NCBI GenBank assembly: GCA_017499595.2
Contig: CM039000.1
Span: forward strand, 3,224,001 to 3,288,000
DNA: 64,000 bases
Source of the DNA: Psilocybe cubensis
Taxonomy: Eukaryota
Direction: 5' to 3'
Part shown: positions 1-20,490 of the stretch, piece by piece
How positions within the stretch are numbered: the stretch's first letter is position 1
Layout of the letters: every line of letters starts with the position of its first letter
Program-made: the position numbers and the translations under genes
Notes under the pieces: model-generated
What the model was told of the DNA's origin: nothing
Databases searched by the model: none
What the model saw: the letters and a program-made list of their open reading frames with translations, nothing else

Positions 1-1090
1 TTGCGCTGCTCGTCTGTCTCCTCACCCCATCCTCCCTCTTCCAATCGACGAGCAGCCTGTGCTGCTCGTCCTCGGTTTTTCCGCCACCACCACCTCCATC
101 TGACGTCAACGGGCAGCCTGAGCTGCCCGTCTGACGTGTTGCCGTCGCCGCCACCGCCGCCCTTCACTTTGACGAGCAGCCTGTGCTGCTCGTCTTTCTT
201 TTCACCCCACCCTCCCTCTTCCAATCGACGAGCAGCGCAGGCTGCTCGTCCTTGCTTTTTCCGCCACCACCACCTCGATCTAACGTCAACAGGCAGCCTG
301 AGCTGCCCGTCGACGTGTTGCCATCGTCACCGCCGCCGCCGCCCTTCCCTGTTCACCCCACCCTCCCTCTTCCAATTGACGAGCAGCGCAGGCTGCTCGT
401 CCTCGGTTTTTCCGCCACCACCAACTCCTTCTGACGTCAACGGGCAGCCTGAGCTGCCCGTCTGACGTGTTGCCGTCGCCGCCACCGCCGCCCTTCACTG
501 TTCACCCCACCCTCCCTCTTCTAATCGACGAGCAGCCTGTGCTGCTCGTCCTCGGTTTTTCCGCCGCCACCACCTCGATCTAACGTCGACGGGCAGCTCA
601 GGCTGCCTGTCAACGTGTTGCCATCATCACCGCCGCTGCCGCCCTTCCCTGTTCACCCCACCCTCCCTCTTCCAATCGACGAGCTGCGCAGGCTGCTCGT
701 CCTTGCTTTTTCCACCACAACCACCTCCTTCTGACGTCGACGGGCAGTCTGAGCTGCCCGTCTGATGTGTCGCCATCGCCACCCCTCAGTCTGACGAGCA
801 GGTTGCGCTGCTCGTCTGTCTCCTCACCCCATCCTCCCTCTTCCAATCGACGAGCAGCCTGTGCTGCTCGTCCTCGGTTTTTCCGCCGCCACCACCTTGA
901 TCTAACGTCGACGGGCAGCTCAGGCTGCCTGTCGACGTGTTGCCATCGTCACCGCCGCCGCCGCCCTTCCCTGTTCACCCCACCCTCCCTCTTCCAATTG
1001 ACGAGCAGCGCAGGCTGCTCGTCCTCGGTTTTTCCGCCACAACCACCTCCTTCTGACGTCGACGGGCAGTCTGAGCTGCCCATCTGACGT
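1..1090. repeat. GC/CpG-rich tandem array, ~150-180 bp unit, at least 7 copies, each with two short hairpins; runs off the window start
   Basis: The anchor TTCCAATCGACGAGCAGC (with variants) recurs near 39, 219, 370, 520, 670, 841 and 992. Each unit carries GACGAGCAGC-N4-GCTGCTCGTC and ACGGGCAGC-N4-GCTGCCCGT. Confidence 0.93.
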
Positions 1091-1412
1091 GTTGGTTATG
1101 AGGATGGTTAACGTGCTGGATGTCCGTGTTGTTGGTCTGTATTTATCCCCTTCACATTCTTAGATTTCTCAATTGACCACCTTTTCCTGGGCCTGCAGAG
1201 ATAACAGAGAAATACTGCTTGTTATTGTCCTTAGTCCTGCCAACACCACCCTCCTCAATTTGATTATCCGCTCATTTCTGCTTTTGCATTCCCTAATGGT
1301 TAACACTTCCTTGGTGTATTATCTCTTATTTGGACATGGTCACATGATGACATGTGCACTACTCGGGCAATCTGTTGCGATAACGGATCTTTGTTTGTTA
1401 CCACCATCTACC

Positions 1413-4400
1413 ATGTCTTCCTATACTCTTTCAACCTCTGAAATTGCTCTTTTGCTTCGTATATTCAGGCATGGAGCCTTTGCTGAAGATGAAGATTACC
1501 TTGAAGATCTGTTGGTCCGTTTGGAGGCACTCAGCAATCCCTGGGATCTGCCAGAAGATCAGTCCACCTACGTTGTCAACTCTGAGACTCTCCATCATGA
1601 TGTAGACATTGGCCATACTGGGAATCTGGCAGGAACTGAAGTTGTGGGTGAGGATATGGTTGAGGATGAGGATGAGGATAGAGATGAGATTGAGTGGGAG
1701 GATGAGGATGAGGATAGAGATGAGATTGAGTCAGAGGATGAGGATGAGGATGAGGATGGAGAAGAGGATAGAGATCTGAACCAGGAGGTTGTCATGCAAA
1801 AAATGCATGTTGTAGATGGCGGAAAAAGGCTGGCAGTGGCTGGTGGGGATCATGGTAGAGGAGGAGGAGGAGGAGATAAAGGAAAGCATCGTGGCAGAAA
1901 GCCCTGTGTCAGAGGAGGACAAAAGGAACCGCGTCAACAAAACCAGGCTTTGTTGGATGTTGTGGGATTTGAGGATGTGGATAGCAGAGTAGCGGAGAAT
2001 GAAGATGAAGACGATGTTCTGGAAAGGCAGTATGAGATCGCTCAGCAGGAAACAGCAGAAGAAGACAGGGAAACACCGGAAAACCATGTTTTAACAAAAT
2101 CTACTAGGGCTTTGCTCCTAAAGGTCTGCTCTGTCTGCGATGATATAATGGACTCTTCTGGTTCCTTGCCTTCTTTCCAAAGTGTTGTGGCGGATCCTAT
2201 TGGCCTTTTGACCTATCTTTGCAATCCTGTCTATAGTAAATCATATCTTGATGCAATTCTAGGCGACCAATCCCTGAAATCTTTAGCAAACCGTTGCTCA
2301 ATGGCAGAGTGTAATACTCTTGTCAGTAAATTTGTGCAAGTTCTGTCTTTAATGCATTTCAGAACTAAAGTTGAAAGGTATGTATCGGCATTTAATCATC
2401 TAGTAGATTATATACTTATCCAACTTTATTACAGTGAATTCTTACAAAAGAAGAAAACTACTCCTAGCCTTACCCGGAGACGGTTACTTGAAGACTTCTG
2501 GTTGGATGGAAAAGATAAACCTGAACCCAAGTCAAAGAATGCTCTTTCTATGGCCAACAATGTTAGAAAGATGCATGATTGGCTTAAAATGGGGTCGGCA
2601 TTTTGTATCTTAGGAGGAAGCGGTAAGAAATTTTAATTATTCCATATAAATCTCAACTAAATGTTTTTAGGTTCATTGTATCTATTACCTGTGTTGATCT
2701 GTGCAGGGGTCAATGGTGACATTAGAAAGATGCCACTAGACCAATGTATTAGGCTGGGAGCTTTAATAAAATCACCAGATTTGTGTAAGTCAGATAATTG
2801 TACAGATTTGAAATTGTTTCTTATAATTTTATAGCGCTTCCTGGGCAGCTTGTCACCAAGTCTCTTATTCCAGCTATTTCAAAGCTTGGAGAACTTTTTG
2901 ATATTGAATTCACATCCATGTTTTCCCCCGACATGCTCTCTGGCTATCATGCTCAATACACATCTTCGGTTTCTGCACGTAATTTGAAGGAATCTGATAA
3001 AATTTTTGACAATATCAATTTCGAGTAAGTAACTGTTTTATTGTAGGTGAATCTATTTATTCACATTCTATATGTAGGACCTATAGGAGAAAAAGGGACT
3101 GGAATGCCTGGTCTAGCTTTTGTATCAATGATTTACAGAATCTTTCTGGCACTATCAATGATATAGAAGCATATTCATCTTACGCCAAACAACTATCAGG
3201 CCCTACAATCTCAGAGGCTATACCGTCATCACCTACAGTTATATCTCAATCCACGTCTCGAATTTCAACTATATCACCAACTGTGCGCTGTTCTTCTCCA
3301 ATGTCAATTTTAGAAGATATTCCTTTATTGGATGATGACGCTATGTCTGTATCAGATTATAGCTCTCGTTGTCCCTCTCCGCTTCTGGAAGATGAAGACG
3401 CTGCTTTCCCTGGCCATATTATCAATTCCACATATAAATCGGATGCAGACTTGAATGCTAAATTTCCTTTTAGTCGAACAGCATCTAAACAACAGATTTT
3501 TTCTACTACACAAGCGGAGAGGAAAAAAGCAGAAGAAGCACCATCTTTTCTTGATTTCGAGCAGTTCAGAATACAGGTACTAGTTTTTTTCTTTCCTAAG
3601 CCATCTTTACTCATTATTTTACAGTTTAAAAAACACATTACTCGTGCTGGAATAAGAAGAGGCAAGAAATATCTTCTTCTTAGCTCTGATATTTTAAACC
3701 AGTAAGTTTCTTTTTAAATTTACTTTTTTATTTAAAGAAAGATATACTAATGCATACTTTGCTAGGCTACCCTTGCGAATCAATGATTCCAAGGGTGCTA
3801 TGCAGATTATTGTGGATCCAACCATGTCTTCCGATATGCGCTCAAAGTTATGGACAAATTTTAAAGTGGCATTTGGTGAAAGCCTTGTGGAAACAGACAG
3901 CAAATCCCAGGGTGAATCTCATCACTTTACATCATTACATTTTACTTGGTATAACCGCTACAGTACTAAGGTGTCAGGGTTTCTCCAGTTTCCCCTCTTT
4001 ATCTTCACAGAATTATCTTATCCTTTCATTATCTTATCAATTACCTGATTAGATAGTTTATTTCTTTCATCACAGCCTTCTTGCTCCACTTCTTTCTAGT
4101 AAATTCTATATGATTCCTAGTCTTACTCATCCTTTTTCTATATGATGTCACTTTTATTCTTTAACCTTCCTTTATGATGTAATGTAGGGAATATTCTAGA
4201 ATAGCTGTAGAGTATAAATACTGGACTTGTAGGTAGCTGTAGCTTCAGCTTCAATCTCTTAGGATATCCACTATCATTGGTGTGATCTCTTAGAATCATT
4301 GAGTCTCTCTCACTCTTTTATTCTCTCTTTGCTCTCTTACTCTCCCTCTGCTCTCTCTCTCTCTCCCTTGCTTGATCTTTGTTGGTGGCCTTGTCACACT

Positions 4401-7400
4401 GATTATAGTGTTGCCCTGACAGAAGATTGAAGCTCTCTCAAGACAACTCCACCATCTTTCTTTCAACACCAAACTCTTCAACCTCTTCAACCTCTTCAAC
4501 ATCATCACCTCAACCTTCTTCCCCCACTTCCAACCCACCAACCTCTTCATCAACCTCTTCACCAATCTTCTTACCAACCTCTACATCTCCACCAATCTTC
4601 AACATCCTCCTCAAGACCTTTCTTCAAGACCTTTGGCTCATCATCTTTCCTACTCTCTGTTGTGTGCTGTGTGTGAACTTAGTAGATAGGGATACCAACT
4701 GTTGGGGCAGACACAGTCCTACTAGTGTTCTGTTTTTGGTGGTCTAGGAAATATCCAGTAACCCTGTGATCCTAGGTTTAGAGCCCTGAGTGGTGTGACA
4801 ACTGGGTATCCAGTAGATAGATATTTTTTTTAGAATACTTAGTATAGTTTCAAGGGCACTTTTAGTAGATAGCTTCTCCCACACACACATCAGAGAGCCT
4901 ACCTACCTCTACCCATGGACATGGACCCCTCCCAATTGCCTCCCACCACTCCTTCTGTGGAAGAGCTCATGCATCAGGTCCAGCTCCTTACCCAAGAGTT
5001 GAATTTTCTTAGACAGCAGCAGCAGTCATTATCCACTCCACCACACCCTCAGCAACCAGTCAGTCAGTCACCATCACCATCACCACCACCACCACCTGCT
5101 GCTCTAGATATTCATTCTTTCCCTACCCCTCATGTTGTCCCTTCCTGTTCACACTCTGCCATTAAAGTCTCACCTCCAGATCCATTTGATGGTTCTATGG
5201 AGAAGGCAGAAAACTTCCTCAGTCAGCTTAAATTATATTTCTATGGGAAAGGGATTACAGATGACTTTCAGAAAGTTATTTGTGCTCTATCTCATATGAA
5301 AGGAGGTACTGCTGGGAAGTGGGCATATGAGAAGACTAAAGTAATAGACAATGCTCAGTCCCAAGAAGGTCTTTGGGCTGACTTTGTTTATGAATTTAGG
5401 GAAGTGTTTGCAGATCCAGACCCCTCCAACACAGCTAAGCATAAAATGCACATGCTCAAGCAAGGCAGACAGACTGCTGATGAGTATGTTGCTAGCTTCA
5501 GGGCTCTGATCTCAGATACTGGGTATAATGATGCTGCTTTGGTAGACCAATTCAAGGCTGGGCTTAATGAAAATCTCAGGAATGCAGTCTACTATGTTCC
5601 TGACATGCCCAAAACCTTGGATGGATGGATTAAATGGAGTACTAGGCTAGATAGGCAGTGGAGACAGAGTGAGGCCTTTACCAAGTCTCTTTCCTCCTCC
5701 TCTTCTTCTCCCTTCCTTAAAGCCCCACCTCCCAAGGCTGTTCCTAAGCCTACTCCAAATCCTCCAGTCTTTTCCAACAGCAGCTCAAGGACCTTTGGTG
5801 CTCAGGCAAAGCAACCAGATGTAGTTCCCATGGAGGTTGACTCTGGATGGAAGTCAGTTAGGCCAATTGTTTGCTTCAAGTGCAGAAAGCCTGGTCATAA
5901 GGCTGTAAACTGCAGGTCATCAGTTAACATCAATGCTATGACCCATGAAGAACTGGCTGACTACTTTGGGAAATTAATCTTGGAAGGCCAGGAGCAGAAA
6001 GATGAGGAAAAGAAAAATTTTTAGAAGCACCATTGGTGAAAGACATGTCCCAATGGCATAGATTTAATGTACTAGAAAATGAAATTGACAGACTTGATCC
6101 TCAGTCTTCAGATTCTGGTGCAGAAATCATGTCTTCTTCTTCCTCTCTTTCTACCTTCCCTGAAAAGATCTACATCCTCAACCATAATCCTAAAACCTCT
6201 ACCCATTTGTCTGTCATCTTAAAGACAATGGACACAGAGAAAAGGTTATCTGTTGATGCTTTGCTTGATTCTGGAGCTACTGGCCTCTTTCTGCATTCTG
6301 GTTTTGTGAAGTATCATAATCTCAACACAAGGAAACTTCCTAGAGCCATTCCAGTCTATAATGTTGATGGTACCCTCAACAAGAGTGGCTCTATCCATGA
6401 GGAAGTAGACTTAATTATGGTACACAAAAACCATACAGAAAGGGCCACCTTTGCTGTTTGTGACTTGGGAGACAAATCTGCTATCATTGGACATACTTGG
6501 CTTTGGCACCATAATCCAGATGTTGATTGGAAGACAGGGGATGTCCAGTTTATTAGATGTCCCTCTGACTGCCAAATGGAAGCCAAAAGAGCCAGAAGAA
6601 AGAGGCAGAGAATAGCTGCAGTCAAAAGGAGGAAACTCCCTCAATTTGATGAAGAAGAAGAAGATTCTATTGAAGATTCTTCTGATTCTGAGATTGAGCC
6701 TGAGGATAGAATTTTTATTTCATACCTTCATCCTCAGAAGCAGTCTATTAATGCTACTTCTACTATGTCTCAAAGATTAGCAGAAGAGTCTCATCAGCAA
6801 GCTGATTCCCCTAAGAAAACCTTTGAAGAAACTGTTCCTAAGCACTATCATCAGTTTAAAGGTGTTTTTTCAAAGGAATCTTTTGATAGGCTACCAGACA
6901 GAAAGCCTTGGGATCATGCTATTGAGCTGAAACCTGGTTCTGAACCTTACAGATCCAAGATTTATCCTCTTTCTCCCAATGAACAAAAGGAACTTGATGC
7001 CTTTTTAGAGGAAAATCTGAAGTCTGGCAGGATTAGACCCTCCAAGTCACCTATGGCCTCCCCTGTATTCTTTGTCAAGAAGAAGGATGGATCTCTTAGG
7101 CTTGTCCAGGACTATAGGAAACTGAATGAAATGACCATCAAGAACTCCTACCCCCTTCCATTGATTTCTGACATTATCACCAAACTCAGCAAAGCCAAAT
7201 ACTTCACCAAACTTGATGTTAGGTGGGGATTTAACAATGTCAGAATCAAAAAAGGAGATGAATGGAAAGCAGCCTTTAGAACCAATAGAGGACTGTTTGA
7301 ACCATTGGTCATGTTCTTTGGTTTAACCAATAGTCCTGCTACCTTCCAAACTATGATGAATGATATCTTTATTGAGCTCATTGATGGAAATGTTGTCATT

Positions 7401-10400
7401 GTCTACATGGATGACATTTTAATTTTCACTGAGACTCTTGATCATCATAGAGAGGTAGTCAAGCAAGTTCTGCAAATCTTAGAACAGAACAAACTCTACC
7501 TTAAAGCAGAGAAATGTGAATTTGAAAAGAAAAAGATTGAATATCTTGGACTAATCATTTCACAAGGCAGGATTGAGATGGATCCTGTCAAGGTAGAGGG
7601 AGTTTCTAAATGGCCTGAACCTGAAAATGTCAAGGATGTCCAATCATTCTTGGGATTTGTTAATTTTTATAGAAGGTTCATAGAGGATTTTGCAGACATT
7701 GCTAAGCCCCTTCATGAATTGACAAAGAAAGGAACAGTCTGGAGATGGAGTCTTAGACAGCAGGAAGCCTTTGACCAGTTAAAGAAGAAAGTCACTTCTT
7801 CACCTGTCTTGATTTTCCCTGATGATAACAAGCCATATAAAGTTGAAGCAGACAGTTCAGATTATGCTACTGGGGCTGTTTTATCTCAGGAAGGATCAGA
7901 TGGGAAATGGCATCCTGTAGCCTTTATGTCTAAGAGTCTATCTGAAGTAGAAAGGAATTATGAGATCCATGACAAAGAGATGCTGGCTATTATCAGAGCA
8001 CTAGATGAATGGAGACATTATCTTGAAGGAACCCAACATTCCTTTGAGATTTGGACAGACCACAAAAACTTAGAGTACTTTATGGTTGCCCAAAAGCTCA
8101 GCAGAAGGCAAGCCAGATGGTCACTCTTCCTGTCCAGATTTGATTTTACTCTTCATCATAGGCCTGGTAAAAGATCTCTTAAGCCAGATGCTTTGTCTAG
8201 GAGACCAGATCATAAAAAGGGAGAGAATGATAACCAAAATGTAGTTCTTCTCAAACCTTCCTACTTTAAAATCCAGGCTCTCAAGCAGGGTCATGCTACC
8301 ATTACTGGTGCAGAAAATGATCTTCTTAAGAAGATTAGAGAAGCTAAGGAGATGGATGAAAAGGTGGTCAAGGCAGTTCAGGAGCTCAAGAAATCTTCTA
8401 CCAAGAAGATTGAAGGACAGGAATGGTCAGAAGAACAAGGCCTTATTCTCTACAGGGGGAAGGTGTATGTTCCCAAGGACAAAGATCTTAGAAGAAAGAT
8501 TGTGGAACTGCACCATGATGCCTTCATTGCTGGACATCCAGGGAAATGGAAGACAATTGAGCTAGTCTCTAGGAATTATTGGTGGCCAGGAATGTCACAT
8601 TTTATTGCAGCTTATACCAGAGGTTGTGATAGATGCAACAGAACCAAAACCTTTCCAGCCAAACCTCTTGGCCTTTTAATTCCTACTGAGATTCCCTCTG
8701 ATGTCTGGCAATGCATCTCTGTGGACTTTATTATGGGGTTACCAGAATGTCAAGGGTATAATGCCATTATGGTGGTTGTGGATAGACTTAGTAAAATGAT
8801 CCACATTATCCCTACTACAGATGAAGTCACTTCTGAAGGGACAGCCAGACTATACAGAGATTATGTCTGGAAACACCATGGCTTACCCATTAAAATTCTG
8901 TGTGATAGAGGTCCACAGTTTGTCTCAAGGTTTATGAAAGAACTCAACTCAATACTTGGTATCCAGACAGCCTCATCTACAGCCTACCATCCCCAAACTG
9001 ATGGTCAGACTGAAAGAGTTAACCAAGAAATTGAGCAGTATCTTAGACTCTTTATAAACCATAGACAAGATGATTGGGTTGAATGGTTAGCTCTAGCTGA
9101 ATTCTCTTATAACAATAGAGTTCAGGCTTCAACCAGGCAGACACCATTCATGCTCAATAATGGCAGACATCCCAGAATGGGCACTGAACCCCTTAGAGAT
9201 AGTAAAATGGACACTGTGGATACCTTTGTGAAAAATATGGAAGAAGCCAGAAAAGAAGCAGAGTCTGCACTTAGAAAAGCTGCTGATGATATGGCTAAAT
9301 TCTATAATAGACACAGAGGTACTCCAACTCAGTACAAAGTTGGGGATTTGGTATGGTTGGATGGCAAGGACCTCAAAACTGATAGGCCCTCCAAGAAATT
9401 GGATGATAAAAGATATGGGCCTTACAAAATTACCAAAGTTATTAGCCCTAATGCCTATGAGCTTAAGCTGCCATCTACCATGAAAATCCATCCAGTGTTT
9501 AATGTGGTTAAACTTCTACCTTATCACCCAGATATTGTAGAAAGAAAGCCTCCTTCTAGACCACCTCCTGTCATTCAAGGAGAAAATCCTGAGTGGGAAG
9601 TTGAATTTATCAAGGACAGCAGACTTTTTAGAAACAAACTTCAATATTTGGTCAAGTGGAAGAACTATCCTAATGAAGAATGCACTTGGGAGCCTGCAGA
9701 GCATTTGAAAAATGCTTCTAAGGCTATCAAGGACTTCCATGCCAAACATCCTTCAGCACCTAGAAGGATTTCTGCTGTGACCTTTGATAGACTTTCTTTC
9801 ACTCCTATTATTAACTTTACTGAACCTCCTCCTCTTCTTAAACCCTCTAAACTAACCCATCCATGTGCACATTGTGGAAAATGTGCCTTAGAGAGGGGGT
9901 GATGTCAGGGTTTCTCCAGTTTCCCCTCTTTATCTTCACAGAATTATCTTATCCTTTCATTATCTTATCAATTACCTGATTAGATAGTTTATTTCTTTCA
10001 TCACAGCCTTCTTGCTCCACTTCTTTCTAGTAAATTCTATATGATTCCTAGTCTTACTCATCCTTTTTCTATATGATGTCACTTTTATTCTTTAACCTTC
10101 CTTTATGATGTAATGTAGGGAATATTCTAGAATAGCTGTAGAGTATAAATACTGGACTTGTAGGTAGCTGTAGCTTCAGCTTCAATCTCTTAGGATATCC
10201 ACTATCATTGGTGTGATCTCTTAGAATCATTGAGTCTCTCTCACTCTTTTATTCTCTCTTTGCTCTCTTACTCTCCCTCTGCTCTCTCTCTCTCTCCCTT
10301 GCTTGATCTTTGTTGGTGGCCTTGTCACACTGATTATAGTGTTGCCCTGACATAAGGTCAGTTTTTAAATCCATATACTTATTCTCTTCCTAATATATTT

Positions 10401-11065
10401 TTTTTAGTTTATTCCTCCTGAAGGCATGTCAGAGGAACAAGCTAAGACTATATATCCTCCTTACTATAGAAGAGAGGGTAAAAAGATCAAGACAAATTCA
10501 TGCACTATAACTCCTCGGGCATCAGCAGAATATCACCGCTATCTTGGTATTCATAATTTGTTGGATAATATTCTAAAAGATGTACTGATTTGGCAAGCTT
10601 TGCGTGTACGTTTTTATTCATATCTTGATCCAACTTATTGCTCATATGTTTTAGCTGGAACAATATCTTCCTAGAGAGTATGAGAAGATAAGGCGATTTG
10701 CAGACCGCCTACCTGGCCAAGACCGTTCATCAGCTTATCCCTTTCCAGGATTTGTTGTTAATATCAACAATGCAACTCTCATCCACCGCGATTGGCATGA
10801 TGATATATTGTGCATCATTATTGTTTTGGGTGATTGTATAGGAGGACACTTGGTCATCTATGAACTTGGATTGGTTCTTGCGCTAAAACATGGAGATATG
10901 GTAATATTCAGATCTTCAAAATTGACTCATTTCAATATGCATTTTTCTGGTCTTCGGGGGTCTTTGGTTTTCCACAGTGATGCTGCTGGGAAGATATGGT
11001 TAGAAAACCAGAATGGATGGTCTGATAATGTATATTTCTTTGGCGATGATGATGTTGTAGCATAA
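1413..11065 (+). CDS. TET/JBP-family 2-oxoglutarate/Fe(II) DNA dioxygenase with a long acidic/helical N-terminus; 9 exons, LTR retrotransposon inserted at the donor of intron 7
   Basis: Exons at about 1413-2377, 2435-2622, 2671-2784, 2835-3024, 3078-3576, 3625-3701, 3766-3970, 10408-10605 and 10655-11065 join in frame across GT-AG introns. The last exon reads GFVVNINNATLIHRDWHD...GGHLVIYELGLVLALKHGDMVIFRSSKLTHFNMHFSGLRGSLVFH, with HxD at 10784-10792, distal His at 10928 and 2OG-binding Arg at 10955. Confidence 0.85.
3972..4421 (+). repeat. 5' LTR (450 bp)
   Basis: TG...CA ends with an 8-bp terminal inverted repeat, TATAAATA at 4213-4220, and no difference seen from 9903-10352. Confidence 0.97.
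4424..4434 (+). promoter_or_regulatory. Primer-binding site, self-priming type
   Basis: AGATTGAAGCT, just after the 5' LTR, is the exact reverse complement of AGCTTCAATCT at 4247-4257, ~26 nt downstream of the LTR TATA box. There is no TGG tRNA-type PBS. Confidence 0.8.
4915..6024 (+). CDS. gag: Gag polyprotein (retrotransposon capsid plus CCHC zinc knuckle)
   Basis: 369-aa ORF with PDPFDG, LKQGRQTADEYVASF...LVDQFKAGLN, VPMEVD and CFKCRKPGHKAVNC. Confidence 0.95.
   Translation: MDMDPSQLPPTTPSVEELMHQVQLLTQELNFLRQQQQSLSTPPHPQQPVSQSPSPSPPPPPAALDIHSFPTPHVVPSCSHSAIKVSPPDPFDGSMEKAENFLSQLKLYFYGKGITDDFQKVICALSHMKGGTAGKWAYEKTKVIDNAQSQEGLWADFVYEFREVFADPDPSNTAKHKMHMLKQGRQTADEYVASFRALISDTGYNDAALVDQFKAGLNENLRNAVYYVPDMPKTLDGWIKWSTRLDRQWRQSEAFTKSLSSSSSSPFLKAPPPKAVPKPTPNPPVFSNSSSRTFGAQAKQPDVVPMEVDSGWKSVRPIVCFKCRKPGHKAVNCRSSVNINAMTHEELADYFGKLILEGQEQKDEEKKNF
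6015..6021 (+). promoter_or_regulatory. -1 ribosomal frameshift slippery heptamer A AAT TTT joining gag to pol
   Basis: An X XXY YYZ heptamer sits in the gag frame directly before the gag TAG. The -1 frame (LEAPLVKDM...) is open into pol. Confidence 0.75.
6021..9902 (+). CDS. pol: Pol polyprotein: aspartic protease, reverse transcriptase, RNase H, integrase, chromodomain
   Basis: LLDSGAT (PR); LVQDYRKLN and YMDDILI (RT); EADSSDYATGAVL and WTDHKNL (RH); HHD...GHPG...CDRC, SVDF, CDRGPQF, TERVNQ and GPY (IN); WEVEFI...QYLVKWKNYPNEECTWEP (chromodomain). Confidence 0.97.
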   Translation, partial: LEAPLVKDMSQWHRFNVLENEIDRLDPQSSDSGAEIMSSSSSLSTFPEKIYILNHNPKTSTHLSVILKTMDTEKRLSVDALLDSGATGLFLHSGFVKYHNLNTRKLPRAIPVYNVDGTLNKSGSIHEEVDLIMVHKNHTERATFAVCDLGDKSAIIGHTWLWHHNPDVDWKTGDVQFIRCPSDCQMEAKRARRKRQRIAAVKRRKLPQFDEEEEDSIEDSSDSEIEPEDRIFISYLHPQKQSINATSTMSQRLAEESHQQADSPKKTFEETVPKHYHQFKGVFSKESFDRLPDRKPWDHAIELKPGSEPYRSKIYPLSPNEQKELDAFLEENLKSGRIRPSKSPMASPVFFVKKKDGSLRLVQDYRKLNEMTIKNSYPLPLISDIITKLSKAKYFTKLDVRWGFNNVRIKKGDEWKAAFRTNRGLFEPLVMFFGLTNSPATFQTMMNDIFIELIDGNVVIVYMDDILIFTETLDHHREVVKQVLQILEQNKLYLKAEKCEFEKKKIEYLGLIISQGRIEMDPVKVEGVSKWPEPENVKDVQSFLGFVNFYRRFIEDFADIAKPLHELTKKGTVWRWSLRQQEAFDQLKKKVTSSPVLIFPDDNKPYKVEADSSDYATGAVLSQEGSDGKWHPVAFMSKSLSEVERNYEIHDKEMLAIIRALDEWRHYLEGTQHSFEIWTDHKNLEYFMVAQKLSRRQARWSLFLSRFDFTLHHRPGKRSLKPDALSRRPDHKKGENDNQNVVLLKPSYFKIQALKQGHATITGAENDLLKKIREAKEMDEKVVKAVQELKKSSTKKIEGQEWSEEQGLILYRGKVYVPKDKDLRRKIVELHHDAFIAGHPGKWKTIELVSRNYWWPGMSHFIAAYTRGCDRCNRTKTFPAKPLGLLIPTEIPSDVWQCISVDFIMGLPECQGYNAIMVVVDRLSKMIHIIPTTDEVTSEGTARLYRDYVWKHHGLPIKILCDRGPQFVSRFMKELNSILGIQTASSTAYHPQTDGQTERVNQEIEQYLRLFINHRQDDWVEWLALAEFSYNNRVQASTRQTPFMLNNGRHPRMGTEPLRDSKMDTVDTFVKNMEEARKEAESALRKAADDMAKFYNRHRGTPTQYKVGDLVWLDGKDLKTDRPSKKLDDKRYGPYKITKVISPNAYELKLPSTMKIHPVFNVVKLLPYHPDIVERKPPSRPPPVIQGENPEWEVEFIKDSRLFRNKLQYLVKWKNYPNEECTWEPAEHLKNASKAIKDFHAKHPSAPRRISAVTFDRLSFTPIINFTEPPPLLKPSKLTHPCAHCGKCALERG
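9890..9899 (+). promoter_or_regulatory. Polypurine tract
   Basis: AGAGAGGGGG lies 3 nt before the 3' LTR. Confidence 0.85.
9903..10352 (+). repeat. 3' LTR (450 bp)
   Basis: Direct copy of 3972-4421, followed by the TSD TAAGG. Confidence 0.97.
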
Positions 11066-11202
11066 TTACTATTCAGATGTTTGTACTGCCACCTGTCGGA
11101 TATTTAATTTCAAAGTCCGTTCACATGATGTCAACTTCGTCCGACACGTCTAAACTTGTATTCTACTTTTTTGGCATCCGTTCTCCAGGCTATCTTGTCA
11201 TA

Positions 11203-13281
11203 ATGCAAACCCGTTCTTTAAAAACAACAAGTTCAGCACCAGCCAAGCCTAAGGCTAAGCCCAAATCCAAGTCTACAAGTACATCAACAACGTCAAAAAA
11301 AGCTTCTTAGAAAAGCAAAGCATCGCAAGACGTTTCTAGTGGACAAAAAGGTAAGTATTGATTCTATCAATGTTCTGTTGTTAATATCTTGTTATTATAC
11401 TGTCAGATTCATCTATAACGTCAAATGAGCTAGCTATATTCCGGAAGGTCCAAGAACAAATGAAGTCTCAGCGTAAGCGTGCTCAAGACGCTGTAAATGA
11501 AGGTAGGTAAATTCCATTTATAAAATCCTACATTTATGCCATTTTCTTGTAGATATTCAAGACAGAAATATGCAGCTTCTTGCACAGCAGCAAGAAAAAG
11601 AAGATCATCCTAGTGAAGAGGAAGCTCGCCGTCCTGCCAAACGTACTCGCACTAGAACAACTCAACTTAGCGATGATGAGCAAGAACTAGCAAATTCATT
11701 AACACCTTTGTCTACTACACGACGCCAAACCACTATACGTCCATCTCCAAGCATAGAATCCGGAAATGAAGAAGACAACAATGATGATGATGATGATGAC
11801 GATGCAAAAGAATCCGCAATTCAACAGGAGAGAGACGGCAGTGATGAAGGAGATGCCAAAATGGACATTGATAATGGCAATATTGGAAATGAAGAAATGG
11901 TTCAGAGCAATAGAAGCTTTGACAACAATGGCGTACGTTTTACAACTTATTGATATCTATTACTCATGATTATTTCTAGATTGAGATCATTGATATTGAG
12001 GATGATTCTCGATCAGTAATATCTAAAATATCCGGCACATCTCGCTCAGCTAGCTCTGAGACTCCAGTACGATTTGCAAAGTCAGCCAAGGTTACTGAAA
12101 GTGATTTTCCTCCTTCCGTTTGGGAACTTGCTGTTGCCGCAAAGTCACACATCCGGTATGCCCTAATCAAAATTTCTCCCTTTCCTTATGCTACTCGGGC
12201 AGAGCGCGTAGAATTCATCTGGGATGTTATCAAAGCGACCTCCAAATTGAATAATAAAGCATTGGTTTCTGCATTCAAGCAAGCCGCTAATAACGAAGCT
12301 ATTAAGAAGAATCTTATTGCCTTTGTACGTATATACAAATCAACTCATTATATATTTGCTAATGTTTATTATAGACAATGTATGGACGGACTGCTTTAAT
12401 CAGCAATATCATTGGCAAGGCTAGAGACAAAGTTAAAGGATTCTACTCTTTAGGAGGCAATGCTACTGGCAATCATGACGATGGCTCTGTTGCTGAGGAT
12501 GTGAAATGGTTATTAGATCAGTCTCATTATGTTTATGGTGGCCTTGACGTCAAGGTATGACTTGATTTCTACCATATCAACTTACTAATTTAAATGCTTT
12601 AGAAACGAACTTATGACGCAAATAAACCTTTTCTTCATCCTCTTATTATTGAGCTTATTGAAGCACAATGGTTTCCATCATCGTATCGTTCAAAATCTGA
12701 TGTAGAAACAGCTACAAACATTATGAAAGACAAAATTATTCCATCGTCTGTTATTCTCTTAGTAGCCACAGCGGTAAGCTATATCATTCTTTATTCATAC
12801 TTATACTTAATTTTGATTTAGATTGAACATGCACTCAGAGAATGGTCTAATGGTCACAAGGCTTTTAATATTAACTTCGCCGAAGAAGGTTCTCGTCAAT
12901 GGTTATATTTTTTTCTGCATAATATTTATTATATTCTAAAATATTTTCATCTAGCTATCAACGTTTAGAAAGCAATTGGAAGACCATTGAGAAGAATGCT
13001 TATAAATGGTCTGTTTTCTGTCGTAAAAAGATTTTTAATGCAATTGCGTCAGTATTTTTTTTAATACCTTAATTCATACTAAGTATACTTTTGCTTTTCA
13101 TAGCGCAAACTACCAAGTTATAGGAGCCGCTCCTAGTGATATGTTAGCTCTTGATTTTGCTGCTTTAGATAAAATAGCCGAAGAAGATGGAAATGATGAA
13201 CCAGCACAAAGAGAAGATGAACACAATGGCAATAGTGGCAATGTTGGTAGTAATGGTAATAGTGGTGAAGTCGACAACTAA
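11203..13281 (+). pseudogene. Multi-exon DUF6532-like protein (basidiomycete, transposon-associated) with an in-frame TAG early in exon 1
   Basis: The spliced reading gives ...YGRTALISNIIGKARDKVKGFY...VKWLLDQSHYVYG...KPFLHPLIIELIEAQWF...VILLVATAIEHALREWSNG..., which I recognise as DUF6532-like. There is a stop at 11308-11310; a downstream ATG at 11460 could rescue translation. Confidence 0.65.
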
Positions 13282-13687
13282 TGGGCCAGATATGCTTATA
13301 GTTAATAAAGGGCAGCTATTTTAGATAAATCCTTCTTTAGAATTCTTTATTTGCGTATATTCATTTTAATCTGTTTTTAATTGCTTCATATATATATACT
13401 GCATTTGTAGCAAACAGGAGCGCTTTCAGCAATTACTTTTTTTATATATGATGTTTTAATACTTATAAAACATAGTATTTTAATTAGTAGATTGTGTTAA
13501 AGTAGCTTTATACTATATATAAAAGCTCAAACTGTATTTGATTGTTTTACAAAGCATTAAATCATTTGTATATGTGTTTTAGCCTTTATTTAAGTATATT
13601 CAAATATTCTAAAGATATTTATTATTGCTTTAAAGACAAAAATTATAATTTTAAAATATCTAAGTTTTGCAAAGAGGCATTGATGTT

Positions 13688-13747
13688 GCTTTGGAATGCT
13701 TTGGAATGCTTTGGTACGCTTTGGAATGCTTTGGAACACTTTGGGAA
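13688..13747. repeat. 10-bp tandem repeat GCTTTGGAAT x6 (possible subterminal repeat)
   Basis: Seen directly in the AT-rich tail after the DUF6532-like gene. Confidence 0.85.
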
Positions 13748-13951
13748 TATTTCAATTGCTTTATAATGCTTTAAGCTGTTTTAAGCTATTTTAAAATACT
13801 TTTGAATATTTTTAGCACTCCATTCTAAATCCACCTTGCTTTAGAGACTTCTAGATCCCTTTTTGTCTTTAGTGTCTTTAGTCTACCTAGGTGTACCTAA
13901 AGCAACTTAAATATACCTAGGGACAAAACCTATTTTCCTGATGTTTCTACA

Positions 13952-14324
13952 GGATATCTTGTGCACTGTCAACGCGCCACATGACTGCGCACAATATAAC
14001 TGCACAGCGAGTGGTGTTCGATATGTGTATCAAGAGCGCAAGGCAACAACCATCAAAACTCCAGTCATTGAACATAAAGTCAACCCTGACCACCGTGTTC
14101 TTAATATGGGGCAGATGCGCAATTCTATCCATCTGCAGCAATTTTGCGTTCCTGCACGACCGGTTCCTAACAAATTGGAAACAATACACAAAGCTGTTTC
14201 CCATACTATTGATACACGAAAGGCGGCAGCAACCAGCGGTCGTGCCACACGAGGAAGGGGGAAAGCGGCTCATAAACTTAAAGGGCAAGGCCACAGTCAA
14301 CATCGTGACATAGGCCAAGATTGA
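13952..14324 (+). pseudogene. 3' exon fragment of a basidiomycete transposase-like gene (possibly CACTA/EnSpm-related)
   Basis: After the acceptor TTTCTACAG it reads DILCTVNAPHDCAQYNC...VYQERKATT...IEH...VLNMGQMR, resembling C-termini of fungal transposase-like proteins. No upstream exons are adjacent. Confidence 0.5.
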
Positions 14325-15320
14325 CAGGCTAGTATTCCTAGTGTGTCTCCCCTTTCGCCACTTCCATCTGCACAGACTGCTGCTTCATCATTGCCACCAC
14401 CCTCGCCAGTGGTTTCCCAGGCCCAGCCATATCCTTACTTCTTTTGGCCATCAGCACCCTCTAATACAGCTTATCCACATTACAATCGACAACCACAGCA
14501 GTACCAAGGGTATACGATGCCATACCCTCAGCATTGGGTTCCCAATTCATCATTGTCGTGGGTTCCAATGCCCCATCTGCCGCCGCCAACTCAACACCCA
14601 GATGGTCGTTAAAGTCATGTGACTGGGGCTACCATTCTGTTGCTTTGCTTCTCTTTCTCTCACCACAGCTTGCCACCCCGCGACCCACTCTCCACTCTCT
14701 GCATACGCACCTCCGGCCCCCCGCAACCCACTCTCCCCTCTCTGCATATGCACCTCCGGCCTGTCCAGTTGTCAAGGTTGGAGTTTCACGGTGAGTTTTC
14801 AAGATTGTTTGAGGTCGTTTGCAAAGTTGATCAACCCCGCCCCGCTTGTCCTAGACCCTTGCTCGTCAAGGTAAGCCCAGCAGCAACACACTCCGTCACC
14901 ATTGATACTGATGGGACTTGTGCAGCGCTACTCGACATGGCCATGCGTGAGCGCTGCAACTCACTACTGCACAGAATGGTGATACGGCGAGTGATTCGGC
15001 AGCGGGCAGAGAGAGAGGACGCGGATTGAAGCATCTCCACTCTCTGCATACACACCTCCGGCCAACGACCCCTCTCCACTCTCTGCATACGCGCTGCCGG
15101 CCAATGACCCACGCAGGTCTTACTAAGAATGCTGCCACATTCACAACGTGTCTGGCAAACCTGGCACTCTTGCAGGTTGTGTCCCATCCCGTACCGGCCC
15201 CTTCACCGAGAATGCTGCTAACTGGGGTTGCAATGAATATCCATGGAAGGGGAGATATGTAAGGTGCACTTGTTTACTTTTCATACCAGTTTCTTTACTA
15301 AACAGACAATAGCATGCACC

Positions 15321-15450
15321 TGCCACTTGTCGACTACGCGCCGCGGCTGCCACTACTCCATCTGCTGCCACTTATCGACTACGCGCCGCGGCTGCCACTA
15401 CTCCATCTGCCCGCCTGCCACTATCTGACTATGCGCCGCGGCTGCCACTC
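15321..15450. repeat. ~46-bp tandem repeat x3 (TGCCACTT..GACTACGCGCCGCGGCTGCCACTACTCCATC)
   Basis: Seen directly. Confidence 0.85.
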
Positions 15451-16126
15451 CTTATATCAACAATGACACACGGAGGTCCTGAATGCCATCGCTATTTGAC
15501 ACACACTCAACACACTTGACAGCCTAGGGTGCAGCAGCCGGACTTCAACAACGTCCCCAGCAATCTGTGCAATGGCATCGCGTCCCCATTGCCTTGTGTC
15601 TTGTTCCTTCGCGTTGTGTCATTAGTCAATTACATTGTATTGTTTTAGTGCAGGATAGCTAGATAATTCAATGTTAATTAAGGATTACATAAAAGTGATA
15701 TCAGTATTGAGAAAAGTGCATAGCTAGAGGTTACTGCTAAGCCCTCTTCAGCACAACTTCCAGGTTTTTTAGCAGTTGGGGATGGTGTTGACAACTTAAG
15801 ATCCTCATCCGAGTCTGTCAATGATGTCAATTGTTTGAACTCCAATTTGGTCATGGGAAATTTGGGGGGCGAATCTCTTTTCTGTTGTTCACTCCCTTCC
15901 GCATTATACATATTGATTTTGGCCCTTCCCCTGAGCTCAAACGTGTTCGAACGCGCTCGGACGCGTTACTGACGCGTTGCGCGCCGTTTATTTGAAATCA
16001 ACAAGAAAATGTTGCACAGCTTTGGTCGGAACGGATAAAACCAAGAACTGCAGAGTGAGTGCAAATCCCGCTTTTGTTCAACATCTTCCTGCTCAGAACA
16101 CTGCTTTGTCAAGTTCAGCTCATCCA

Positions 16127-19484: not shown

Positions 19485-20016
19485 TGTCACGCCGTGCTCA
19501 CGCATCGACTTGACGCCGTCTAAGTCAGGATTTTTGGTCCAAGGACAACAGTTCTCTTTGTTTGAATATTATATCTTGCCATATCTCTAATCTCAAGTAT
19601 GTAAAGTGCCCAGTTGCGGCCGAAAATGTTATAAAATTTCCGTTGGAAGGCTCTAGCCCGTGTACAGGTACTAACCTCAAGTGTTAAGTGTGAAGATCTA
19701 ATATACTTAGGCTGAATGGGACAGTAGAATTAGGGTAGAAAGCAAAGGTTTGATGTTACAGCATTACCAGGCCGGGTACTCACTCTGCGAGTTCACACTC
19801 CTTGAAATTGTCAGTTAGGAGTGGATGCACCAAGACATCAAAATAAGGCTAGCTTAATTGGATTGCACTGAAATCAAATAATATTGTATTTATTGTCATC
19901 CAGTAAGTCTAAGAGTGATTATTGGTGAGTAAATTGTCTATTAACAAGGAGAACGGGGAGTATGAGGAGCATTGATTGAGCGATAAAAAGAGTGTGAGAG
20001 TGTGACTGATGTGACA
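19485..20016. mobile_element. Possible solo LTR (532 bp)
   Basis: Begins TGTCAC and ends GTGACA, and splits a perfect 39-bp palindrome. Only a 3-bp ACA duplication flanks it. Confidence 0.45.
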
Positions 20017-20156
20017 ACAGGGGCTGTCCGCATCTTTACTGATGCAATTGCACCAGATGTTATGGAGAGCGATTTGCAACGGTTTTCGTCAGAATTTTTG
20101 ACTCCGCTTTCATTCTCCGCCGGAGCTCTCCCGTTGTCTTCTCCCATATCACCTCG

Positions 20157-20490
20157 AGCATTTGTTAGCTGCCTTTGGGTCAGCGCTTCAAGCACTTGTT
20201 AGCTGCCTTTGGGTCGGCGCTTTGAGCATTTGTGAGCTGCCTTTGGGTCAGCGTTTCGAGCATTTGTGAGCTGCCTTCGGGTTGGCAATGCGAGCATACT
20301 CCAGATCTCCCAACATTCACTAGCTGCCTTTGGATCGGCGCATCGAGCACACGAACACACAAAGCTGCCTTTGGGTCGGCAATTCGAGCATACAAAGCTG
20401 CCTTTGGGTCGGCGAATCGAGCACACGAAGTCACCTTCGGGTCGGCGCATCAAGCACATGAAGCTACCTTTTGGGTTGGTGCATCAAACA
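20157..20490. repeat. 33-34 bp minisatellite x9 (AGCTGCCTTTGGGTCGGCG...GAGCA)
   Basis: Unit starts at 20167, 20201, 20235, 20269, 20322, 20363, 20396, 20429 and 20462. Confidence 0.9.

Follow-up and report, generated by a model that had tools for sequence, protein, structure and literature searches.

Organization of the locus

The window, that is the whole 64-kb stretch of Psilocybe cubensis DNA analysed here, opens inside a tandem array, followed by a gene for a TET/JBP-type dioxygenase, by a Ty3/Gypsy chromovirus inserted in this gene and by a downstream gene with DUF6532 fragments (Table 1).

Table 1. Coordinates of the features at the left end of the window
Feature	Position	Strand	Basis and remarks
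GC-/CpG-rich tandem array	1-1121		cut by window start; GC 0.625, CpG o/e 1.01
TET/JBP gene, 5' part	1413-3970	+	exons 1-5; collinear tblastn with the 1,088-aa homolog P0004
Introns of the TET/JBP 5' part	2623-2670, 2785-2834, 3025-3077, 3702-3765	+	gene model
Target-site duplication TAAGG, left copy	3967-3971		G of the intron GT donor at 3971
Ty3/Gypsy chromovirus	3972-10352 (6,381 bp)	+ (strand of the TET gene)	LTRs, target duplication, domains
5' LTR	3972-4421 (450 bp)	+	TG..CA ends; TATA-like box near 4214; 0 CpG
gag	4915-6024 (369 aa)	+	open frame; Ty3 capsid, Retrotrans_gag, zinc knuckle (Pfam)
pol	6033-9902 (1,289 aa)	+	open frame; protease, RT, RNase H, integrase (H2C2, rve, SH3)
Chromodomain, integrase C-terminus	9594-9743	+	pol residues 1188-1237; PF00385, E 2.4e-15
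3' LTR	9903-10352	+	same sequence as 5' LTR; purine-rich tract directly before
Target-site duplication TAAGG, right copy	10353-10357		original donor AAG/GT re-created
Remainder of the 51-nt intron hit by the chromovirus	10358-10407	+	gene model
TET/JBP gene, 3' part	10408-11065	+	two exons, intron 10606-10654; stop 11063-11065
Fe(II) triad, TET/JBP 3' part	His 10784-10786, Asp 10790-10792, distal His 10928-10930	+	
Downstream multi-exon gene with DUF6532 fragments	11507-13281	+	fragments 12375-12560 and 12603-12821; same low-depth segment as the TET gene
Right edge of the AT-rich low-depth segment (TET and DUF6532 genes)	~13940-13985		depth, GC

The array was resolved by TRF into 5.8 copies of a period of 151 and 2.9 copies of a higher-order unit with a period of 322. 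Its unit holds two palindromes with 10-bp stems, and the palindromic motifs match 14 and 16 times, all within positions 47-1084, with no match expected. From 1122 to 22,543, chromovirus excluded, CpG o/e ranges from 0.42 to 0.73 vs 1.01 over the host genes from 22,544 to 64,000; it is 0.42-0.69 in the body of the TET gene (0.42 in its 5' part) and 0.56 in the outer segment when the array is left aside.

The TET and DUF6532 genes share a segment of low depth. At its right edge, GC rises from 0.30 to 0.49 and the depth of run X1 contigs from 11.5-15.8 left of 13,983 to about 29 right of it, and in runs X18 and X1 the segment left of ~13,950 reaches 0.25-0.45 of the neighbouring depth. This low depth fits a hemizygous insertion and also a divergent haplotype, with no excess copy number, and the segment is probably hemizygous. 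A scan of 25 frames between 767 and 15,273, chromovirus excluded, detected no transposase, and neither terminal repeats nor right-end counterparts of the array motifs occur in the window. Because the window cuts the array, a transposase could be located to the left of position 1. That the TET locus is itself a mobile element is therefore supported only indirectly, through the roughly half-depth coverage left of ~13,950. The sequence-only reading had described an outer element that keeps CpG-rich arrays and encodes a TET/JBP oxidase. A TET/JBP-type dioxygenase is indeed encoded on either side of the chromovirus and the array has kept its CpG, but no transposase or termini are visible and the rest of the segment is depleted. 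The nesting proposed in the same reading is real, except that the chromovirus interrupts the TET gene itself and not merely an element around it.

A TET/JBP gene split within its catalytic domain

Assuming that translation starts at 1413, the 5' part of the gene codes for an extended N-terminal region that matches no Pfam family, followed by the first of the conserved strands of the TET domain (YNRY motif). The chromovirus, in the orientation of the gene, entered one base into the 51-nt fifth intron, between the G and the T of the donor; this intron sits where two homologs in alignment A2 carry extra residues. The insertion divides the TET domain, with the YNRY strand upstream and the HxD...H core downstream. 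Removal of the element, one copy of the duplication and six short GT-AG introns leaves an open frame of 983 codons, whose product gives a single blastp alignment to residues 334-1085 of P0004 (E 1.7e-119), a protein of 1,088 aa from Flammula alnicola which aligns collinearly on either side of the chromovirus.

The Pfam Tet_JBP model scores 24.8 bits (E 1.4e-5) against the window exon, below its cut-off of 34.9; it matches all eight homologs scanned, among which P0008 alone exceeds the cut-off (41.4 bits). In alignment A2 (22 sequences) the distal His never varies and the HxD His and Asp almost never do; the window protein has all three residues. The family profile also matches human TET2 across HxD (E 0.0012), the two HxD motifs being aligned. 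The predicted structure of a homolog, P0003 (pLDDT 75.8, pTM 0.75), has CcTet as top PDB match (7vpn_B, E 6.6e-7, TM 0.51, 273 columns), followed by NgTET1 (5cg9_D and 4lt5), then TET2 and CMD1; by way of this model, a TET-type double-stranded beta-helix fold is supported for the family. Flammula, Gymnopilus and Pluteus have annotated "hypothetical proteins" with the same long architecture (~1,000-1,100 aa), and many other database homologs are short, domain-only proteins, which may be fragmentary gene calls.

The insertion would lengthen the 51-nt intron to ~6.4 kb and set the termination signals of the LTRs within the gene, so that, judging from its sequence, the interrupted TET gene is most likely inactivated. 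The downstream exons hold an in-frame ATG at 10426.

A recently mobile chromovirus family

The inner element proved to be what the sequence-only reading had taken it for, a CpG-free chromovirus with a chromodomain integrase. It combines TG..CA LTRs and a target-site duplication with the gag-pol order and a chromodomain at the C-terminus of the integrase. Along the 1,289 aa of pol, Pfam places a protease (73-157, weak), RVT_1 (348-509), RNase H (572-703), the integrase (816-987) and SH3 (1104-1165). The chromodomain scores 56.6 bits, with a cut-off of 25.1, and has aromatic residues at the three positions that would correspond to the methyl-lysine cage. The sequence after the 5' LTR does not start with the usual TGG of a primer-binding site. 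The two 450-bp LTRs are 100% identical, and the best explanation is that the chromovirus is autonomous and transposed very recently.

Raw reads of run X18 cover the chromovirus at a depth of ~1,380-1,610 vs 69-82 at 15.7-19 kb (~19-fold) and run X1 contigs at 323-489 vs 29 (~11-17-fold), from which we estimate ~11-19 near-identical copies; 41,386 of the 74,792 placed reads are at least 99% alike. The flanks of these copies mostly differ (agreement of the loose-end consensus 0.35-0.40), and the commonest flank is not the TET site. At the LTR start, two independent loose-end consensus strings match at 28 of 30 positions, which indicates that an appreciable minority of copies share one flank and thus that some repeated target exists; this flank was sought in the 64-kb window and is absent from it. 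Since the TET flank has a depth at or below single-copy, most chromovirus copies cannot occupy this site in near-identical TET loci. In reads and contigs, which allow a weak test, no sign of a preference for TET loci was seen. No TET homolog occurs on the 91 contigs with related chromoviruses, which have little flank, and no contig joining the LTR to TET exons was found in one possible RNA run of very low depth.

Complete absence of CpG

The chromovirus contains no CpG where 267 are expected from its base composition. The CpG-free gap runs from 3957 to 10515 (6,560 bp) and spans LTRs, non-coding leader and codons alike; elsewhere in the 64 kb the longest such gap measures 296 bp. Within the coding sequence, all 91 Arg codons are AGR and none is CGN, NCG codons are missing among the 413 codons for Ser, Pro, Thr and Ala, and no C/G codon junction is found vs 88.5 expected. 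TpG (1.22) and CpA (1.15) show a similar excess, the pattern expected from deamination on both strands. Arg is nonetheless kept in 53 of the 59 columns in which it is shared by at least 70% of 23 aligned relatives.

This intact, multi-copy element devoid of any CpG is unusual. The closest relatives by pol protein share 76-85% identity. Among 80 metagenomic relatives (38-60% identity) none is CpG-free; their CpG o/e extends from 0.11 to 1.21, and lower CpG tends to accompany higher TpG+CpA. Of 91 loci of relatives, 22 have an ORF of at least 900 aa, and in these CGN accounts for 0.43-0.93 of the Arg codons (median 0.80). Within the family, the 22 best-supported variants, from a list with 520 further rows, differ by 14 changes of the T>C or A>G type; none of these creates a CpG, where by our own arithmetic ~3 would be expected.

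Origin of the CpG-free state and of the nesting

In this Agaricales fungus, the CpG depletion of repeats leads us to infer that they are methylated at CpG. Such methylation, followed by deamination, would have stripped CpGs across many replication cycles, and selection among retrotransposing lineages would have retained only the copies with working proteins; a lineage without CpG could then presumably no longer be marked by CpG methylation. Zero CpG is far below the usual reach of mutation pressure alone, which argues for selection without proving it. Chromodomain integrases of other chromoviruses steer integration to H3K9-methylated, repeat-rich chromatin and, by analogy, the integrase described here probably directs the chromovirus to such chromatin. 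The insertion lies within a CpG-depleted, repeat-rich 22-kb stretch, so that the nesting would be a by-product of this targeting or plain chance, with no specific relationship. On the whole, we consider it fairly probable that CpG was purged under selection, leaving the element unmethylatable at CpG, that the chromodomain targets repeat-rich chromatin and that the insertion in the TET gene is incidental. A further-reaching proposal, which we put forward tentatively and would not call probable, is that the family is naturally "methylation-proof": selected CpG avoidance in the LTRs, the leader and ~1,660 codons would keep it transcribed and mobile despite silencing by CpG methylation, and the chromodomain would still steer it into methylated repeats, including TET loci, whose opposite strategy would be to erase the mark.

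The lack of CpG might instead be a purely mutational end state, reached by methylation-driven or RIP-like hypermutation and of no benefit, the present copy being a survivor. The joint rise of TpG and CpA in the chromovirus, the raised TpG+CpA of low-CpG relatives and the CpG depletion of the window's other repeats point in this direction, and CpG-biased hypermutation has been published for Basidiomycota (PMC4014442 and PMC12730594, section 4.2, in their available parts). We nevertheless regard this as unlikely, since deaminated CGN codons become Cys, Trp, stop, His or Gln whereas the conserved Arg columns have largely stayed Arg, and since writing every Arg as AGR needs transversions plus purifying selection. 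Open frames, identical LTRs and a multi-copy family also speak against it, the other repeats of the window stop at an o/e of 0.42-0.73, and the absence of CpG-creating changes among the family variants goes the same way. Scarcely any credence can be given to an escape from an RNA- or cDNA-level CpG sensor, or from a CpG-directed nuclease, rather than from DNA methylation, as we know of no such system in fungi. CpG is likewise missing from the LTR stretch that precedes the TATA-like box and presumably lies outside the RNA, and the repeat-wide depletion in the window suggests a process at the DNA level. The sole support in the sequence is that all transcribed parts, non-coding leader included, are CpG-free; CpG-sensing antiviral proteins are described in vertebrates (PMC11670115, available part).

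As to the nesting, the sequence-only reading had suggested that CpG-free chromoviruses prefer TET/JBP elements or give them an unmethylatable promoter, in a specific TE-TE interaction. The common orientation would suit a partnership, as would the TATA-like box in the 3' LTR, the splice donor restored by the duplication directly after it, the presence of the HxD...H core and of the in-frame ATG in the downstream exons, the frequency in the database of short, domain-only homologs (perhaps fragmentary calls) and the one flank common to a minority of copies. Yet a product read out from the LTR would miss part of the domain, as the downstream part lacks the first conserved TET strand, and a split catalytic domain makes a knock-out likelier than a partnership. 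The idea fares no better with the heterogeneous flanks, the commonest being another site, with a TET flank that is too shallow for a target present in several copies of at least 90% likeness, or with the 91 contigs and their little flank. Chance suffices by our rough estimate of ~1/10 for one TET hit under uniform insertion (dozens of TET genes per agaric genome, ~20 insertions, 40-Mb genome), and the figure would be higher if insertion is repeat-directed. Coprinopsis cinerea, for instance, has 46 TET genes (cited in PMC12730594, section 4.2). A specific interaction is therefore very improbable. Doubtful, though far from implausible, is that there is no outer mobile element at all; the TET/JBP gene would then be a normal host gene with a lineage-specific expansion, lying in polymorphic, repeat-rich DNA and hit by a retrotransposon. 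The 25 frames without a transposase domain and the lack of terminal repeats or matching right-end motifs agree with an ordinary gene, as do a depth that leaves room for no more than one copy with a likeness of at least 90% and the long architecture seen in Flammula, Gymnopilus and Pluteus. On the other hand, the reduced depth in two runs is what a presence/absence variant would give, the CpG o/e of the segment resembles that of repeats and not of host genes, and the region left of the window start could hold a transposase; moreover, Agaricomycete TET/JBP genes are reported to reside largely on DNA transposons, Kyakuja and Zisupton among them (PMC12730594, available part).

If the CpG-free state is adaptive, the family would be a clean natural case of a transposon that evades silencing by DNA methylation by deleting the substrate from its own sequence, where other elements encode a counter-enzyme instead. 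The same genome offers CpG-bearing repeats and TET genes for comparison, which makes the idea of CpG escape directly testable, and the family would be a natural probe of the share of CpG methylation in the silencing of mushroom repeats vs H3K9 methylation or RNAi. The nesting matters less: TET/JBP genes, thought to aid their carriers, are themselves hit by other mobile elements, and one nested locus says nothing on preference.

Comparison with known systems

The element resembles fungal chromoviruses, of which MAGGY, MarY1 and the Tf1/Tf2 group are examples, by its TG..CA LTRs, its 5-bp duplication and its gag followed by PR-RT-RNaseH-IN-SH3-chromodomain. Its pol has 2,913 relatives at E <=1e-50 among 8,000 scored; those that bear a name are "Tf2-type" proteins from Lyophyllum shimeji (55-57% identity). 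It departs from them by its lack of CpG, when the lowest o/e in the DNA of the 80 relatives is 0.11, and by a CGN share of 0% of Arg codons vs 43-93%.

TET/JBP genes were reportedly found on fungal DNA transposons by Iyer et al. in 2014. Kyakuja, Zisupton, Plavaka and other fungal DNA transposons carry such genes, and those of the Kyakuja/Zisupton type have defined termini, CA..TG in Kyakuja, with a 7-bp target duplication (Kojima 2025, PMC12730594, available part). The locus described here shares with them an Agaricales dioxygenase with HxD...H in a repeat-like, CpG-depleted, probably hemizygous segment, but it shows neither transposase nor termini in a window that starts inside the array, and its protein of ~980-1,100 aa has an uncharacterised N-terminal region. 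Counted from the first His, and assuming no indel, the window TET has Asp at +5 and Ile at +11, whereas CcTET-like AG-type enzymes have Gly/Ser at +5 and Asp at +11 (PMC12730594, section 3.4). According to the available text of the same source, no TET is encoded by a retrotransposon; that text is silent on retrotransposon insertions within TET genes and contains none of the words "inserted", "nested" and "CpG".

In Basidiomycota, repeats undergo CpG-biased hypermutation (Horns et al. 2012, quoted in the available parts of PMC4014442 and PMC12730594); according to section 4.2 of the latter, none has been detected in Agaricomycotina. The chromovirus has likewise lost CpG and gained TpG/CpA in repeated DNA. 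However, the hypermutation is described as degrading repeats, whereas the element is intact, recently active and multi-copy, with conserved proteins.

Some retrotransposons have captured DNA methyltransferases. A Copia family carries a methyl-CpG-binding domain from a captured host gene (PMC6673714, available part). Like these transposons, which counter or exploit DNA methylation, the chromovirus would be a TE lineage adapted to the CpG-methylation system of its host. Unlike them, it has captured no gene, and its adaptation, if it is one, lies in its own dinucleotide content.

A CpG-free chromovirus

The 6,381-bp insertion in the TET/JBP gene is a Ty3/Gypsy chromovirus, complete and of very recent origin. 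Its LTRs (Table) have TG..CA ends, TAAGG flanks the element at both sides, a TATA-like box lies in the LTR near 4214, and a purine-rich tract stands immediately 5' of the 3' LTR. Both frames are open, with gag (369 codons) matching the Ty3 capsid, Retrotrans_gag and zinc knuckle entries of Pfam, and pol (1,289 codons) encoding protease, reverse transcriptase, RNase H, integrase, a Tf2-type SH3 domain and a C-terminal chromodomain (E 2.4e-15). The 64-kb window holds no tRNA gene.

Features of the locus, in window coordinates
Feature	Position	Remarks
Left tandem array	1-1121	units of ~151 bp
TET/JBP gene, exons on both sides of the insertion	1413-3970 and 10408-11065	+ strand
Alignment to P0004 residues 334-584	2067-3025	
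Alignment to P0004 residues 827-892	3773-3970	
Insertion-site intron	3971 and 10358-10407	51 nt originally
Retrotransposon gap in P0004 alignment	3972-10352	
LTR pair	3972-4421 and 9903-10352	direct repeats, 450 bp each; 100% identical, match ends exactly at LTR ends
Alignment to P0004 residues 902-964	10456-10650	
Alignment to P0004 residues 952-1085	10655-11038	
DUF6532 gene	11507-13281	directly 3' of TET
GC-rich tandem-repeat block	14676-15449	
Element with terminal inverted repeats	19276-22543	3.27 kb
Insert within that element	19387-20121	39-bp inverted repeats at 19446-19484 and 20025-20063

That this chromovirus had shed its CpG while carrying a chromodomain integrase was already proposed in the sequence-only reading, and both points hold. 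The longest stretch without CpG in the window spans 6,560 bp (3957 to 10515), the runner-up in 64 kb being 296 bp, and the element contains none of the 267 CpG expected from its base composition (Poisson log10 P about -116). The absence extends to every part, with 14 expected in each LTR, 21 in the leader, 58 in gag and 157 in pol. At the codon level, Arg is written as AGA or AGG at all 91 sites, the 413 Ser, Pro, Thr and Ala codons include no NCG triplet, and C|G codon junctions are absent against 88.5 expected. TpG (1.22) and CpA (1.15) are raised to a nearly equal extent. Simple deamination of CGN codons yields Cys, Trp, stop, His or Gln. Of the 59 alignment columns in which Arg is present in at least 70% of 23 relatives, the chromovirus retains it in 53, and since deamination would have destroyed these residues, Arg must have been shifted to AGR codons while purifying selection acted through many copy generations. 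As judged from these alignments, the protein sequence is uncompromised by the CpG loss, which joins three traits: a methyl-CpG deamination signature, a clear constraint at the protein level and an end point of exactly zero. Other repeats in the window stop at a CpG observed/expected ratio (o/e) of 0.42-0.73, far above the zero of the chromovirus.

Among 8,000 scored, 2,913 pol relatives have E ≤1e-50, the closest proteins being 84-85% identical and the named ones being "Tf2-type" proteins of Lyophyllum shimeji (55-57% identity). At the DNA level, the comparison covers distant relatives only, namely 80 metagenome contigs (38-60% identity) and 11 IMG/VR contigs (33-53%); viral contigs were rejected as a source of close relatives, all 11 loci being just 33-53% identical. 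In the 80 metagenome relatives, the pol region has a CpG o/e between 0.11 and 1.21 and never zero, with TpG+CpA tending upward in the low-CpG members. An ORF of 900 aa or more is present at 22 of the 91 relative loci, and there CGN makes up 43-93% of Arg codons (median 80%). As none of the 80 relatives is CpG-free and CGN codons are common among relatives, total CpG loss is, on these comparisons, a derived trait of this chromovirus family or its close kin and not a general one of fungal chromoviruses.

We read this state as the result of long-term purging of CpG, in which CpG-free lineages were favoured, or at least unopposed, by selection, and as an outcome CpG methylation is no longer able to mark the chromovirus. 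The CpG-free state is likely, if unproven, to be adaptive. CpG-biased hypermutation is known in basidiomycete repeats (PMC4014442); according to PMC12730594, it was not detected in Agaricomycotina. Literature searches on CpG-free or CpG-depleted fungal retrotransposons listed no description of an intact CpG-free one.

Copy number and flanks of the family

An 8-kb probe was found, whole or in part, in 15 runs of seven studies, with at least half of its words in 11 of the 15, which carry several different organism labels. Runs with the locus have contigs amounting to about 40 million letters. Four runs were mapped to window positions 3001-23,000. In X18 (raw genomic reads), the element reaches a depth of ~1,380-1,610 against 69-82 for its neighbours (15.7-19 kb), a ratio of ~19-fold, and in X1 (contigs) 323-489 against 29, or ~11-17-fold. 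Of 74,792 reads mapped in X18, 41,386 are at least 99% alike. At no fewer than 22 positions, nearly all reads have another letter than the window copy, which is therefore a slightly divergent member of the family. At the 22 differing positions listed (520 further rows exist), no majority letter would create a CpG; 14 of these differences are T>C or A>G, and as changes of this type would create one in about a quarter of cases in this sequence, by our own arithmetic about 3 were expected. X14, which may be RNA, yielded five short contigs (152-227 bp, depth 2.4-4.5), every one of them internal to the chromovirus and none on TET exons or across a junction.

Reads leaving the LTR into foreign sequence numbered 366, 580 and 464 before the LTR start, and 315, 260 and 359 behind the LTR end. 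Agreement of these loose ends with their consensus is just 0.35-0.40, which indicates that the flanks differ among most copies. Two independent consensus strings of the 5' side nonetheless match at 28 of 30 positions, G/C positions included, despite a per-position agreement of ~0.36; a sizeable minority of copies thus has one upstream flank in common, pointing to a repeated target or a duplicated insertion. The commonest foreign LTR flank has no match within the window, and none of the 15 joints listed out of 53 is an empty-site joint skipping 3972-10357.

Interruption of the TET/JBP gene

P0004, a 1,088-aa TET homolog from Flammula alnicola, is collinear with the window on both sides of the insertion (Table). 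To model the gene, the element and one duplication copy were removed by script and short GT-AG introns were then sought. The frame is open from ATG 1413 to the stop at 11065 in 260 intron combinations; the start codon is assumed, and so many combinations make an open frame easier to obtain, though the exons are long ORFs themselves. With blastp, the best model (983 codons) aligns in one piece to P0004 residues 334-1085 (32% identity, E 1.7e-119). The insertion-site intron is the same in the 40 listed of the 260 combinations and in the five best-scoring ones, and the alignment rows of two homologs carry extra residues exactly at the insertion point, as expected if an intron there had been read through in their gene calls.

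The chromovirus sits between the G and the T of the splice donor and is oriented like the TET gene. A GT follows the left exon by chance, made by the TAAGG duplication and the initial TG of the LTR, and the 3' LTR is followed by a restored copy of the original donor. The insertion divides the conserved YNRY strand, a confident beta-strand in the structure model of the 295-aa homolog P0003, from the HxD...H core. The gene otherwise looks intact and the two LTRs do not differ, which suggests that a working gene has recently been interrupted. Fungal introns are short (48-64 nt as modelled here) and LTRs contain termination signals, and for these reasons we infer that the TET gene is now non-functional.

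In X18, every read on the TET 5' flank (3022-3956) departs from the window at 18 shared positions (~2%), at about one quarter of the neighbouring depth; the X18 strain therefore has an allele or paralogue of the TET locus that has diverged.

Nesting and the surrounding repeats

The nesting had been read as a possible interaction between two mobile elements, in which CpG-free chromoviruses preferentially hit TET/JBP elements. Tests for such a preference were all negative but weak: the flanks of the family are heterogeneous, the TET flank is single-copy, and none of the 91 related contigs carries TET. Indeed, 150 TET proteins compared with these 91 loci (525 kb, mostly element-internal) gave no match beside the related chromoviruses. 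Chromodomain integrases of other chromoviruses are expected to direct copies into repeat-rich chromatin; the integrase of this element would likewise send it to repeat-rich DNA, and the TET locus lies in such DNA. Furthermore, given ~11-19 copies of the chromovirus and agaric genomes with dozens of TET genes each (46 in Coprinopsis cinerea, a figure cited in PMC12730594), a single TET hit is unsurprising. The nesting needs no special explanation, and a TE-TE interaction between the chromovirus and a TET element is unsupported and improbable. The earlier observation is otherwise largely confirmed, with corrections, and its lasting interest resides in a chromovirus family without CpG that is apparently active.

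Some of the corrections concern the outer element, which was said to keep CpG-rich arrays and was placed up to 13940. Repeat-like DNA fills the first 22 kb of the window, and the remainder holds ordinary genes, including those for a nucleotide-sugar transporter (84% identical to Galerina marginata and 73-81% to other Agaricales), a mitochondrial ribosomal protein, a TPR protein and Utp21. The transporter matches place the host among the agaric mushrooms. CpG o/e is 0.42-0.73 for pieces of 1122-22,543, chromovirus excluded, against 1.01 for 22,544-64,000. CpG is kept in the left array (1.01) but not in the 5' part of TET (0.42) or in its 3' part with the DUF6532 gene (0.69), and if methylation-driven decay explains the CpG loss of repeats, the TET locus has been hit by it too.

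The evidence for an outer element is indirect. TET and DUF6532 have a depth of 14-22 in X18 (69-82 adjoining) and of 7.5-13 in X1 (29 adjoining), X1 contigs matching the window perfectly stop at 13,983, where the adjoining contig (depth 29) has 35 differences in 3.4 kb, and GC steps from 0.30 to 0.49 near 13,950. This fits a segment carried by only one of two haplotypes and ending on the right near 13,950, close to the 13940 first proposed. Against an outer element, 25 frames scanned outside the chromovirus contain no transposase, 1-14 kb lacks long bracketing inverted repeats, the array palindromes at the left have no right-hand counterpart in the window, and depth gives no excess copy number of the TET/DUF6532 segment; the left end lies beyond the window, which starts inside the array. 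According to Kojima (PMC12730594), the usual carriers of TET/JBP genes in agaricomycetes are Kyakuja, Zisupton and other DNA transposons, which makes a mobile carrier plausible here, but we do not class the locus as a TET-carrying transposon.

Each unit of the left array contains two palindromes with 10-bp stems and 4-nt loops, perfect or near-perfect (14 and 16 motif matches against 0 expected), which look like protein-binding or hairpin sites; candidate roles are those of a promoter, of transposon subterminal repeats or of a satellite. The DUF6532 gene, in the same low-depth segment as TET, is multi-exon and very acidic in its N-terminal region; DUF6532 is mentioned in one paper on Ganoderma genomes. 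Just right of this segment, the GC-rich block contains three distinct tandem repeats (43-, 39- and 45-bp units) and bears the strongest deamination-like signature in the window (CpG o/e 0.70, TpG 1.45, CpA 1.41). Farther right, the 3.27-kb element has 29-bp terminal inverted repeats (97% complementary), is apparently TA-flanked and resembles a non-autonomous DNA transposon of the Tc1/mariner-like type, with no Pfam match for its ORFs; 21 raw X18 reads skip exactly this element (joint 19275 to 22542) and thus reveal a presence/absence polymorphism. Its internal segment, with fully complementary inverted repeats, 2-2.5 times the depth of its neighbours and several alternative joints (skips of 670-682 bp), suggests a nested multi-copy MITE-like insert.

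Identity of the TET/JBP family

The ORF at 10655-11065 matches Pfam Tet_JBP at 24.8 bits (E 1.4e-5), under the cut-off of 34.9; all eight homologs scanned match this entry as well, and one exceeds the cut-off. A word-indexed search for longer TET relatives gave no match, and an exhaustive one then gave 694 relatives at E ≤1e-3 (best 53% identical), among them "hypothetical proteins" of Flammula alnicola, Gymnopilus dilepis and Pluteus cervinus. Many are ~1,000-1,100 aa long with the domain at the C-terminus. The N-terminal exon, compared with a protein atlas, scored at most 0.88 with unnamed or helical-repeat clusters only and was uninformative.

A profile of 22 family members matches human TET2 across HxD (E 0.0012), and the window gene retains the HxD, the distal His and the subsequent Arg-containing strand. 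P0004 has no match at the sequence level among PDB entries. The P0003 model (pLDDT 75.8, pTM 0.75) finds Coprinopsis CcTet (7vpn) as its best PDB match (E 6.6e-7, TM 0.51, 273 columns), with Naegleria NgTET1 beside it and human TET2 and CMD1 next. On profile and predicted fold, the family is a TET/JBP-type dioxygenase, in agreement with the oxidase first proposed at this locus, whose activity is a predicted one. The family is not close to CcTET in sequence and, counting from the first His, lacks the two residues reported to be typical of CcTET-like enzymes (PMC12730594).
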